This document shows positions 43,480 to 44,997 of a DNA stretch of 64,000 bases, piece after piece. The number at the start of each line of letters is the position of its first letter. Position 1 is the stretch's first letter. Position numbers and translations under genes: made by a program. The stretch is from Polyangiales bacterium (lineage in GTDB: Bacteria; Myxococcota_A; Polyangia; Polyangiales; Houyiibacteriaceae): assembly GCA_965227405.1 (NCBI GenBank), contig OZ245758.1, positions 2,387,153 to 2,451,152 on the forward strand. Reading direction: 5' to 3'. The notes under the pieces are model-generated. The model was not told the DNA's origin. It saw nothing but the letters and a program-made list of their open reading frames with translations, and did no database searches.

Positions 43480-43851
43480 GGTTGTTGCCGCGCCCTTACG
43501 CGAGAAGCGTACACACGGTAAAAAACAAACCTCGCAAGTTTGCACTGTCGGTTCGAATCCGGCTCGGTCCACCGCGTCCTAGGACGCTGCAAACAGCTCG
43601 CGCTACAAAGCGAGAGCACTTCCCAAAGGTCGAACGAGCGCGAAGCGCTCGACGATCGGAGGGGGAACAAGCTCGGCGCTGAAAAGCGAGAGCACCTCCA
43701 AAGTTCGAACGAGCGCGCAAGCGCTCGACGATCGGAGGGGGGGACCCAGAGGGCTCTGCCCGATGGGGGGGGAGGACTTCAAGAAAGTCCTCCCAGAAAT
43801 CTGGGCCGAATAAACACATTCGTCGCTTTTACGACTTGTGCGGCAACAACC
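43480..43851 (+). ncRNA. helix-closed structured element (module 1) with a tRNA T-arm and two tandem ~75-nt hairpin-rich units
   Basis: GGTTGTTGCCGC (43480..43491) is the exact complement of GCGGCAACAACC (43840..43851). Inside are TACACAC (43510), the T-arm GTCGG-TTCGAAT-CCGGC (43547..43563) followed by TCGGTCC-ACC, a tandem repeat at 43595..43669 / 43670..43743, and a 9-bp hairpin GGAGGACTT/AAGTCCTCC. Confidence 0.35.
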
Positions 43852-43859
43852 TTATTTAC

Positions 43860-44004
43860 GCGCCTGTAGTTCAATTGGATAGAACGCCGTCGTCAAGACA
43901 GCTTCAGCAACTTACGCGGCTCCACTCGCGACTACTCTGCAAGCCTACACACGCATCGGGCTCATAACCCGGAGGTTACAGGTTCGAATCCTGTCGGGCG
44001 CTCC
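43860..44004 (+). tRNA. tRNA-Met(CAT)-like gene interrupted by a 69-nt insert in the 5' strand of the anticodon stem (module 2)
   Basis: GCGCCTG-TA-GTTC-AATTGGATA-GAAC-G-CC [insert 43889..43957] GGG-CTCATAA-CCCGG-AGGTT-ACAGG-TTCGAAT-CCTGT-CGGGCGC-T. The acceptor pairs over 7 bp (one T-G). The D, anticodon and T arms are canonical once the insert is removed. Confidence 0.45.
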
Positions 44005-44008
44005 TCTC

Positions 44009-44163
44009 GCACATCTCAAAACTATCGCCGGCCGCTACGCGGCCACAGCACACGACCTGCTGCCATCCTCTCGCCTCGGTAATGAGTACATTGCCTCGGT
44101 TCGCGGACGCACCATCTCGTGCACTCTGACGGCGTATCGACGGGCGCTAGTTTTGAGATGTGC
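44009..44163. mobile_element. MITE-like element, copy 2 (155 bp), inserted between tRNA-like modules 2 and 3
   Basis: GCACATCTCAAAACTATCGCC (44009..44029) pairs with 44143..44163 as a 21-bp TIR with one mismatch. Its interior is collinear with copy 1 at 22491..22653. Confidence 0.6.
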
Positions 44164-44179
44164 TTCGAATCGTGACCAC

Positions 44180-44290
44180 TTTTGAAGCGTACATACTTGG
44201 AGGTTCGAATCCTTCACTCCCCACCAGAGCTCTAAGCTCAATCACATTGGGGAGTTGGGCAAATGGCAAAGCCAACGCGTCGTAAAACGC
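44180..44290 (+). ncRNA. circularly permuted tRNA-like module (module 3)
   Basis: Order is T-arm GGAGG-TTCGAAT-CCTTC (44199..44215), ACTCCCC-ACCA (44216..44226), a 22-nt linker with hairpin GAGCT-CTA-AGCTC, then GGGGAGT (44249..44255, exact complement of ACTCCCC), TG, and D-arm GGCA-AATGGCA-AGCC. The closing helix is GCGT (44187..44190) with ACGC (44275..44278), extendable to TTTT/AAAA. Confidence 0.4.
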
Positions 44291-44336
44291 GTCTATCAAC
44301 GACCGCTTCACCAACTTACACGATTCAACAATTCAT

Positions 44337-44459
44337 CCCTCGCGATCACTGATCGGCTTACACACTGGCTAAACTGGGATAGGCAACAGACTCTTAATCT
44401 GTGATTTGTTGGTTCGAATCCAACGTGAACATCACCAGCCGATCGAACTTGCGTGAGGG
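44337..44459 (+). ncRNA. 123-nt YrlA-like tRNA mimic (module 4, anticodon-loop CTCTTAA)
   Basis: The leader pairs with the trailer: CCCTCGCG (44337..44344) with TGCGTGAGGG (44450..44459), and ATCGGC (44352..44357) with GCCGAT (44438..44443). The core has TACACAC, a D-arm-like segment with GG, ACAGA-CTCTTAA-TCTGT, and GTTGG-TTCGAAT-CCAAC. Confidence 0.5.
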
Positions 44460-44469
44460 TGCCAAATTT

Positions 44470-44576
44470 CGCGCGCGTCCTAACAACTGGGACTTACACA
44501 CTGGCCTTGAAAGCCAACGGATTGAAACTCCGTCCCCTGCAAAGGGAACACAACGTCCCGGAAACTCACGCGCGCT
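44470..44576 (+). ncRNA. 107-nt Y-RNA-like module (module 4.5) with D- and anticodon-arm look-alikes but no T-arm
   Basis: GCGCGCG (44471..44477) pairs with CGCGCGC (44569..44575), and GGGAC (44489..44493) with GTCCC (44555..44559). The core has TACACAC, GGC-CTTGAAA-GCC, ACGGA-TTGAAAC-TCCGT, and a CCCT-GCAA-AGGG hairpin. Confidence 0.4.
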
Positions 44577-44588
44577 ATTCAAATCACC

Positions 44589-44711
44589 CCCTCGCGATCA
44601 CCTGCGCGGCTTACACACTCGCCTAACGGTAAGGCAACAGACTTCAACTCTGTCGATGTTGGTTCGATTCCAACGTGAAACCAAACACAGCCGTTCGAAC
44701 TTGCGTGAGGG
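44589..44711 (+). ncRNA. 123-nt YrlA-like tRNA mimic (module 5, anticodon-loop CTTCAAC)
   Basis: Paralog of module 4. CCCTCGCG (44589..44596) pairs with TGCGTGAGGG (44702..44711). The core has TACACAC, TC, a perfect D-arm GCCT-AACGGTA-AGGC, A, ACAGA-CTTCAAC-TCTGT, CGAT, and GTTGG-TTCGATT-CCAAC. Confidence 0.5.
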
Positions 44712-44760
44712 AAGCTTCTGGTCGTCTTTCAGATGACCTTCGTCTCGGTCCCCGACTTCA

Positions 44761-44824
44761 TCGACGTACACACAATCGGATCCTGGGGGCGAAAGCCCTC
44801 TGCATCATTGCGTAGAACCGTCGA
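44761..44824 (+). ncRNA. small helix-closed module (module 6) with TACACAC and a GAAA-tetraloop hairpin
   Basis: TCGACG (44761..44766) pairs with CGTCGA (44819..44824). TACACAC is at 44767. Contains the hairpin GGGGC-GAAA-GCCCT. Confidence 0.3.
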
Positions 44825-44997
44825 CGTAACTTGACCGAGCGTTGATCTGCAGCGTTCGTCTAATGCCAGGATGCCGGCCCTGTTAGGCCGGAGACGCACG
44901 TTGGATTCGTGCACGCTGCGCCAAGGTTCTGCTTCTCGCACACACGAGAAGCGAATGTCCCCCAGTCGTTCGTGAACGCGAACGATCCAATCGCCAG

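Follow-up and report, generated by a model that had tools for sequence, protein, structure and literature searches.

Why does one heptanucleotide recur at the same structural position in a tandem array of otherwise dissimilar RNA modules, and what reads it there? The question is raised by a 64,000-nucleotide stretch of the genome of a Polyangiales bacterium (Myxococcota_A; GenBank assembly GCA_965227405.1, contig OZ245758.1, forward-strand positions 2,387,153 to 2,451,152; hereafter the window), in which TACACAC and its variant TACATAC mark module after module ahead of a divergent Ro60 gene. The original prediction for this stretch, made from the sequence alone, had proposed a shared protein-binding or processing site, with Ro60, one of two proteins of unknown family or an endonuclease/ligase as candidate partners. 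The comparative analysis reported here leads us to regard the junction as rather probably serving both as hinge and as recognition element in an arrayed, divergent family of Y RNAs, one tied to an operon for ubiquitin-like and E1-like proteins.

When the sequence was re-read, every motif coordinate of the original prediction was correct: TACACAC begins at 43510, 43946, 44359, 44495, 44612 and 44767, always on the plus strand, and TACATAC at 44190 is the seventh instance in the array. The window as a whole contains nine TACACAC, against 2.84 ± 1.69 in 100 dinucleotide-preserving shuffles, of which none (0/100) reached nine. Similar density throughout the genome would have spoken against a special role, as the prediction itself had pointed out; the heptamer is in fact rare, with 412 copies on both strands of 9,074,070 bp. 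At this genome rate a single strand of 1,264 nt would be expected to contain 0.029 copies, and six are observed (Poisson P(≥6) = 7.6e-13, or ~1e-8 once corrected for all windows). The array is also the sole site in the 9.07 Mb scanned with at least three TACAYAC on one strand inside 1.5 kb. A GUGUGUA string was considered as a complementary partner in cis and dropped, none being present on the plus strand of the window.

The gene downstream of the array turned out to be a Ro60 homologue by profile search and predicted fold:

45067..46524, plus strand: divergent Ro60 gene (HEAT-repeat ring plus vWA domain), by profile match and predicted fold

Pfam gives its product a weak VWA_2 match and no TROVE, and NCBIfam gives nothing. 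A profile built from 44 homologues matches human RO60 (6e-7), Thermus phage Ro60 (1.4e-5) and Xenopus Ro (0.004). The AlphaFold (AF2) model made on that alignment has a predicted local distance difference test score (pLDDT) of 83 and a predicted template modelling score (pTM) of 0.76, and every one of the Foldseek matches listed at ranks 1-13 is a Ro60 structure (E 9e-13 to 1.2e-9, template modelling score 0.61-0.69). Because profile and modelled fold both point to Ro60, we call the gene a divergent Ro60. A genome search with Pfam TROVE (PF05731) did not find it and found another gene at 2.045 Mb. This second Ro60-type gene (2044486-2046087, minus strand; locus L100) is TROVE-positive, and its 534-aa product shares 39% identity with proteins from Bacillus phage G and from a Desulfovibrio phage; a simple pattern search within ~5 kb of it showed no T-loop and no TACAYAC.

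Orthologues of the divergent Ro60 gene were present in 8 of the 60 relatives searched, a patchy distribution of 9/61 genomes when this one is included; the gene also occurs in several phyla and on two cyanobacterial plasmids, and strains of Moorena, Kovacikia and Dolichospermum are among its cultivable carriers. In the orthologous arrays, where the original prediction looked for support, six same-family relatives (69-81% protein identity) keep two to five TACACAC each upstream of the gene, on the gene's strand only. TACATAC stands in the same context in Moorena bouillonii and in metagenome-assembled genomes (MAGs) of Vulcanimicrobiota, Pirellulaceae and Desulfobacteraceae, at 47-63% protein identity. 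A metagenome scan with the protein alignment added 80 loci, and the sequence upstream of 91 homologous loci (192,280 nt) contains TACAYAC 180 times forward and 16 times in reverse; the clade furthest removed (45-49% protein identity) has TACAAAC instead. Conservation of the motif reaches from this genome as far as cyanobacteria, Vulcanimicrobiota, Desulfobacteraceae and Pirellulaceae.

The heptamer proved to be the end of something longer. An ungapped logo of 161 distinct motif-aligned instances reads CCGYGCCCYNAC-N4-RAAGCY-UACAYAC-U, a frame of ~31 nt; about five of the 161 are without this flank and look like chance occurrences. A position weight matrix (PWM) of flank plus motif, run upstream of the homologous genes, gave 205 forward and 0 reverse matches, and of the 69 loci whose upstream sequence extends to 1 kb or more, 60 had one match or more, 49 at least two and 25 at least four. 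As UACA-AC is fixed by the search pattern in the aligned rows, its conservation was read from a flank-only matrix instead. This found 162 distinct sites, followed by exactly TACANAC in 139; the remaining sites are mostly one base off, for example TACATAA (seven times).

Duplex search and folding gave the following module order: P1, internal loop, P2, junction, P3 and cargo. P1 (for example CCGCGC/GCGCGG plus 4-7 variable pairs) is followed by an asymmetric internal loop, 5′ YYNAY facing 3′ RACUU (5′ CCUAAC facing 3′ (G)ACUU), and then by the 10-bp P2 (…AAAGCU/AGCUUU…). At the junction 5′ UAC faces 3′ RAAnCAAC, the A/C-rich opposite strand measuring 6-10 nt, and the 4-bp P3 (AYAC/GURU) closes the cargo. 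The structural position given to the motif by the original prediction, between a closing helix's 5′ strand and the core that follows, is thus upheld by the comparative data, and the three A/C-rich strands it listed, AACATCACCA (44428), AACACAAC (44547) and AAACCAAACACA (44678), are there in the sequence.

The structure was scored on 52 aligned modules of the tRNA-like class, with cargoes of ~62-75 nt. Paired cells made up 88.6%, compared with 71.7% in shuffles, and the covariation score was 0.508 against 0.189, a value as high being reached in 0/500 shuffles; registers slid along the alignment paired at most 49%. The D, anticodon and T stems were all supported, and changes on both sides were seen at 9/10 pairs of P1 and 8/10 pairs of P2, compensatory changes from which we argue that the closed frame is the functional form. 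In P3, counting rows with letters, A4 pairs with U in 43/49, A6 with U in 48/51 and C7 with G in 48/52, and motif position 5 forms U-A in 29 modules, U-G in 12 and C-G in 10 and is unpaired in one. In the UACAAAC clade the partner strand is GUUU, located after the D arm or the T arm. A crude table of 166 modules gave the same picture, position-5 C standing with G in 18/39, U with A in 54 and with G in 17 of 90, and A with U in 16/37 (three-state chi2 = 59, P = 7e-11, which overstates the significance since the rows are related). The first three bases, U1, A2 and C3, are paired in 31/50, 11/50 and 22/49 rows with letters, that is, not consistently. On this covariation, UAC is an unpaired 3-nt junction and AYAC the 5′ strand of a short helix with one pair free to vary. 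The idea that conservation across divergent modules marks a shared site therefore stands insofar as the element is under selection; a single-stranded protein site is too simple a description, since the heptamer is the 3′ end of a ~31-nt strand and its last four bases are paired with GURU. Kink-turns have a 3-nt bulge followed by tandem sheared G.A pairs, and a kink-turn was dropped as a candidate here because UAC is followed by Watson-Crick A-Y-A-C pairs with no GA/AG. A CCA-end mimic in the A/C-rich strand was likewise dropped, CCA being present in some modules and not conserved.

These data bear on the alternative that the motif has no function as RNA and is a relic of duplication or a signal in the DNA, such as a promoter element or a recombination site. 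Arrays plainly grow by duplication, and two of the window modules (E and G, below) are clear paralogues. However, the other helices have diverged with compensatory changes while the motif stayed fixed, it persists across phyla whose Ro60 proteins are merely 45-63% identical, the one base in it that varies does so in step with a partner base in the RNA, and no sigma-70-like promoter was found. We regard this explanation as very improbable.

In the window, seven framed modules (A, B, D, E, F, G and H) span 43480-44831, and the array as a whole reads as follows:

43480..43851, plus strand: module A; P1 43480-43491/43840-43851, P2 5′ strand 43500-43509, motif TACACAC 43510-43516 (read from the sequence)
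43860..44004, plus strand: module B; tRNA-Met(CAU)-like body, motif 43946-43952 (read from the sequence)
44009..44163, plus strand: hairpin C; 155-nt near-perfect stem with no frame and no motif (minimum-free-energy, MFE, fold)
44167..44326, plus strand: module D; P1 44167-44174/44319-44326, P2 44180-44189/44304-44310, motif TACATAC 44190-44196
44337..44459, plus strand: module E; P1 CCCTCGCG 44337-44344 / CGTGAGGG 44452-44459, motif 44359-44365
44471..44575, plus strand: module F; three-hairpin non-tRNA core, motif 44495-44501, 3′ junction AACACAAC 44547-44554, frame PWM 22.2
44589..44711, plus strand: module G; paralogue of E, motif 44612-44618, PWM 19.7
44741..44831, plus strand: module H; hairpin core, motif 44767-44773, TAACTTG 44817-44823
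44931..44953, plus strand: hairpin GCTTCTCG-CACACA-CGAGAAGC, outside the conserved frame
44998..45030, plus strand: GC-rich hairpin followed by TTTTCGAT, just 5′ of the Ro60-like start (MFE fold)

The window frames are somewhat divergent, with CGCGAUCAC in place of CGCGCCCUAAC and a P2 of 9-10 nt, and the cargoes they carry differ widely. Modules E and G, both included in the alignment of tRNA-like modules, enclose un-permuted tRNA-like bodies. That of E (anticodon CUU, 44366-44427) is followed by the A/C-rich 3′ junction at 44428-44437 and by AACTTG at 44446-44451, scores 36.2 bits with Rfam tRNA over model positions 5-66 only and is called tRNA-Lys by ARAGORN; that of G (anticodon UCA, 44619-44677; 3′ junction 44678-44689, AACTTG 44698-44703) scores 47.4 bits over positions 5-66 and is called tRNA-SeC. 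In both, the motif occupies tRNA positions 1-7, only CAC/GUG pairs are formed and the ends run on into P2, so that the 7-bp acceptor with free ends and full cloverleaf of a canonical tRNA is not found in either. Modules A and D retain the T arm alone, accompanied in the MFE folds by long inserted hairpins in A (frame PWM 34.9) and by hairpins in D, and F and H have no T arm. Within the cargo of module A, 43590-43735 holds two tandem ~70-nt repeats (GCTCG..AAAGCGAGAGCAC..TCGAACGAGCGCG.AGCGCTCGACGATCGGAGGGGG).

Module B is built differently. It has an open 7-bp acceptor stem (GCGCCTG 43860-43866 / CGGGCGC 43995-44001), scores 28.9 bits with Rfam tRNA over 43942-43994 and is 87% identical over 38 nt to a host tRNA-Met; we infer that the frame stands in it as an internal hairpin, with the D arm on one side and the anticodon arm on the other. 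Apart from this partial similarity, copying of host tRNAs was rejected as the origin of the window cargoes. Hairpin C, next to it, is probably an insertion, since a related metagenomic contig joins 44003 straight to a D-like module. Assembled contigs from three sludge runs labelled metatranscriptomic (flagged "probably DNA") cover mainly the tRNA-Met-like 43956-43995, in small shares, and those from relatives cover 43858-44003 and 44561-44815; the contigs show neither ends nor expression. For this organism the listing of sequencing runs gave no RNA run.

Two further hairpins lie between the modules and the Ro60-like gene. The one at 44932-44951 had been put forward as displaying the motif's CACAC in its loop, and it does read CTTCTCG-CACACA-CGAGAAG; the loop, by contrast, is not conserved, as in a locus of the same genus (L010) TTCG forms the loop of the nearest hairpin with a similar stem, which sits elsewhere in the array. 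We treat the resemblance as coincidence. The hairpin at 44998-45030 is a possible attenuator or terminator; a consensus terminator scan made no call there, and relatives carry GC-rich hairpins at the matching position.

The motif's place in E and G raises the possibility of a processing signal, in which UACAYAC would mark the place on the polycistronic transcript where an endonuclease, RNase P on the tRNA-like modules or a dedicated nuclease, cuts to free the cargo or open the module and leaves ends at U1. In un-permuted tRNA-like modules the motif takes up tRNA positions 1-7, with U8 and the D arm following at once; many modules of cyanobacterial type form UACAUAC/GUAUGAA with 6/7 acceptor pairs and are matched by Rfam tRNA over positions 1-71; module B has its open acceptor stem; and in Mycobacterium smegmatis, according to the relevant part of PMC4201824, YrlA is cut by RNase P and given a CCA tail in vivo. 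The same part of PMC4201824 reports that no RNase P cleavage of short-stem YrlAs was seen, however, and the acceptor-like helix in the window is just 3-4 bp, with the would-be 5′ leader locked in the 10-bp P2. The motif is, moreover, equally conserved where the cargo has no T arm (plain hairpin or rRNA mimic, 34/117 parsed modules), and the compensatory changes in P1 and P2 favour the closed frame. We therefore consider a processing signal unlikely.

The explanation we favour is a Y RNA element. YrlA, as characterised in the sections of Chen et al. (2014; PMC4201824) on its conserved features, combines a stem made by both ends and containing GNCGAAN0-1G, the conserved element YUAY, and a tRNA-like domain in permuted order, and the Rfam consensus (RF02553) runs P1, loop, P2 of 7 bp, unpaired CUA, 4-bp helix and T arm, with 3′ AcUuG before P1. 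The present modules resemble it in adjoining a Ro60 gene on the same strand (43480-44831 and 45067-46524, both plus; likewise in 60/69 loci), in the long interrupted end stem, in the 3-nt unpaired Y-U-A, in a 4-bp helix leading into the tRNA-like domain and in ACUUG before the 3′ strand of P1. (Y)UAC occupies the YUAY position in 7/7 window modules and 139/162 frame matches, the equivalence being one of position and architecture, and among the proteobacterial YrlA seeds given in PMC4201824 Salmonella and P. fulva share CUACAU, and R. etli has CUACAG, with the Salmonella 3′ end AAACUUGUCGCC. Some modules of related loci are permuted as in YrlA (T arm, acceptor hairpin, D arm); with RF02553 those of L047, L089, L098, L016 and L025 score 46.1, 42.8, 41.5, 37.1 and 35.9 bits. 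We conclude that the present modules are a Y RNA family related to YrlA, in which UAC(AYAC) would be an extended YUAY.

The family differs from YrlA in several ways. Its 5′ recognition strand is CGYGCCCYNAC and not GNCGAAN0-1G; its UACANAC is nearly fixed throughout with the fifth base alone free, whereas YrlA keeps only YUAY; its P2 has 10 bp, compared with ~7-8 in YrlA, and its loci hold up to eight modules. Among its cargoes are plain hairpins, rRNA mimics and tRNA-like bodies that are un-permuted and keep an anticodon arm, and a permuted domain (T arm, closed acceptor hairpin, UA, D arm) without an anticodon loop is not found in the window, where E and G are un-permuted with anticodon arms and B is open-ended. 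The Ro60 protein escapes Pfam TROVE, and its operon contains a ubiquitin-like and an E1-like protein, not RtcB/RtcA. As the YrlA genomes of PMC4201824 were, in the part describing them, gathered via TROVE annotation, with tabulated planctomycete Ro proteins of 435-552 aa, the present Ro60 clade may lie outside that set. With metazoan and Deinococcus-type Y RNAs the modules share an end-made stem and a conserved 5′ strand beside an internal loop: in the family of this genome the strand is often GCUCCGAC or GCCCCGAC, a similarity of 5-6 nt to GGUCCGA on the 5′ strand of their bulged stem, which Ro60 contacts according to PMC4201824. Metazoan and Deinococcus Y RNAs, unlike the present family, have no tRNA-like element, no UACAYAC and no comparable arrays.

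Several observations weigh against counting the modules as YrlA-related Y RNAs with one fixed junction. The RF02553 scores of the relatives are all below the gathering score of 69, and in the window no RF02553 match was obtained at E≤10 over 43000-45100. The best RF02553 alignment is shifted by one helix, placing P2 of the frame on P1 of the model, and because of this shift the equation of UAC with YUAY rests on architecture together with short identities. GNCGAAN0-1G is absent from the frame, both from the flank logo (CCGYGCCCYNAC) and from window modules (CGCGATCAC, CGCGCCCTTAC, GTCCTAAC, TCCCCGAC), and the actinobacterial and cyanobacterial YrlA seeds shown in PMC4201824 have only UUAC/UUAU in common with the frame. 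The authors of the YrlA structure, in the portion of 10.1101/312249 that discusses it, are unsure whether the kink is universal. Variants of the motif exist, namely a shortened UACAC besides the seven TACATAA; both matrices were trained on motif-anchored sites and are partly circular, strand asymmetry alone being independent; and MFE folding leaves P3 open in many modules, which is not decisive for a helix of 4 bp.

With its last four bases paired and its first bases at the YUAY position, the motif appears to be at least partly a structural hinge. In the S. Typhimurium YrlA structure, U23-A24 of YUAY kink the stem by ~30 degrees, as summarised by Wang et al. (2018; 10.1101/312249; PDB 6CU1). 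Seven Y-RNA-like modules in tandem ahead of the divergent Ro60 gene, sharing one common frame, could work in the following way. P1, the loop and P2 would form the docking site of the Ro60-like protein, and the UAC hinge would fix how the cargo is angled relative to the stem that the protein binds, like U23-A24 in the YrlA crystal. UAC and the invariant bases of P3 would provide a second recognition point, one helical turn (the fixed 10 bp) from the loop, and any cargo behind P3 would be loaded alike onto the same protein. The kink at UAC is proposed by analogy with YrlA, and the most likely reader of the junction would be the Ro60-like protein itself.

Other readers are conceivable because the gene stands in an operon, in the order 66-aa protein, array, Ro60-like, (unkA), unkB, ThiF-like:

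43239..43439, plus strand: candidate ubiquitin-like open reading frame (ORF) of 66 aa, first operon gene; found by tblastn upstream of the array in 60/90 loci
46551-47534, plus strand: unkA, unknown family
47467-48396, plus strand: unkB, unknown family, conserved downstream of Ro60
48424..49164, plus strand: ThiF/E1-like adenylyltransferase (Pfam ThiF 4.5e-31; under every NCBIfam cut-off)

Across the 90 loci, many of which end early, the 66-aa protein was found in 60, unkA in 9, unkB in 39 and the ThiF-like protein in 29. The 66-aa protein has no match in Pfam, NCBIfam or PADLOC. Its complete copies have 66 aa and end in RPEAV(Y/F)G with G as the last residue (...RPEAVYG-stop in the window; one partial copy has RPPAVYG), a candidate terminus of the kind expected for a ubiquitin-like substrate of an E1 enzyme, and a beta-grasp fold may be presumed. 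For unkB there are at least 257 homologues, all labelled "hypothetical" and without a Pfam domain, in which a Cys within SAGICLSG is invariant; its single-sequence model reaches a pLDDT of 34, no usable match was found in the ESM Atlas, and profiles of unkB and of the 66-aa protein gave nothing below E 0.07 against PDB. In PADLOC, the E1 domain alone gave a match, to "E1-E2" models. Paired across dozens of loci, the 66-aa protein, the ThiF/E1-like enzyme and the Cys-bearing unkB look like an uncharacterised ubiquitin-like conjugation set attached to the Ro60 ribonucleoprotein (RNP). Among the twelve ORFs of 38.6-52.0 kb scanned against Pfam, no gene for RtcB or another ligase was found. The genes flanking the operon encode a 718-aa protein with nine disintegrin-domain matches (39797-41953) and a 317-aa protein with four MopE-type metal-binding motifs (49997-50950); both are probably unrelated to it.

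The junction with its A/C-rich strand could accordingly be a dock for an effector: unkB, unkA, the E1-like enzyme or the ubiquitin-like protein would bind there, and the Ro60-like protein would hold only P1 and the loop. A parallel is known from Deinococcus, where a Y RNA tethers Ro60 to PNPase. The known Y RNAs covered in the pertinent section of 10.1101/312249 are bipartite, with a Ro60 stem and an effector-binding part. The operon order of ubiquitin-like protein, array, Ro60, unkB and ThiF is conserved (accessory genes in 60, 39 and 29 of 90 loci), and the invariant paired A4, A6 and C7 suggest base-specific read-out beyond what a helix needs. On the other hand, none of these proteins is linked to RNA, unkB has no recognisable domain, and the fixed 10-bp spacing between loop and junction suits a single binding surface equally well. 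We hold an effector dock to be a minor possibility, ahead of a processing signal.

Among the modules, of which a locus holds at most eight, the cargo may be tRNA-like in two topologies, a plain hairpin or a mimic of 23S rRNA. In Moorena bouillonii, a framed module between the Ro60-like gene and unkB (L016 7410-7612; …GTGCCCTAAC-AGCCAGAGCT-TACATAC … GGCTCTGGC-GACTTG-CACA) matches positions 1076-1161 of the bacterial large-subunit (LSU) rRNA model at 52.7 bits, above the gathering score, and contains the 12-mer AGTACGAGAGGA, found also in the 23S rRNA gene of the present genome; we take these two parts to be the GTPase-associated centre and the sarcin-ricin loop, respectively. A second framed rRNA-like module, of the UACAAAC type (L089 3358-3500), matches LSU positions 1076-1161 at 55.1 bits, again above the gathering score. 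Cargoes with ACGGUYCUAAGGUAGCGA occur in L047, L048 and L098 and are similar to that of an orphan framed module in the present genome (2547981-2548245, minus strand; L102; PWM 30.4), which lies ~97 kb past the window and far from Ro60-like genes. The orphan's cargo opens with a 30-nt exact copy of the host 23S rRNA (BLAST), in a region reading GCCGTAACTATAACGGTCCTAAGGTAGCGA that is presumably 23S helix 69; at E≤1 these helix 69-71-like cargoes were not matched by Rfam's LSU model. In L098 1-1950 and L089 3027-3916, tRNA genes with full scores (Rfam positions 1-71, 42-59 bits) stand in rows just upstream of the framed modules or among them.

In the full-text literature searched, on Ro60 or Y RNA in connection with ThiF, E1-like or ubiquitin-like proteins and on YrlA from 2019 onwards, we found the system undescribed, bioRxiv supplements and Burroughs & Aravind 2016 being outside the scope of that search. 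The frame with its near-invariant UACANAC adaptor, the two tRNA topologies, the rRNA-mimic cargoes and the ubiquitin-like/E1 operon were found in none of it. The purpose of the tRNA-like half of bacterial Y RNAs is named as an open question in the sections of PMC4201824 and 10.1101/312249 that treat it. Here, one near-invariant adaptor, frame plus UACAYAC, takes very different cargoes, including the tRNA fold attached by either end and exact or close copies of rRNA functional centres, which argues that it is the cargo, not the frame, that varies under selection. The adaptor offers a minimal RNA with which binding to the Ro60-like protein and the structure of the complex can be studied, and a simple search key for modules that standard annotation misses or calls odd tRNAs. 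The conserved link to ubiquitin-like and E1-like proteins, and not to an RtcB ligase, suggests a second, unexplored output of Ro60 RNPs. As a tentative and rather doubtful extension, the frame may be a plug-and-play display handle through which the divergent Ro60, with the ubiquitin-like protein, the E1-like enzyme and the Cys-bearing protein, would present translation-machinery decoys: tRNA bodies that differ in anticodon and are attached in two topologies, copies of 23S helix 69, and mimics of the GTPase centre and the sarcin-ricin loop. Such decoys would act as bait for RNA-damaging toxins, phage factors or RNA-binding proteins, or would sense them, with recognition coupled to protein conjugation, and the array and its operon would then constitute a horizontally mobile RNA-surveillance or defence system of an undescribed kind.

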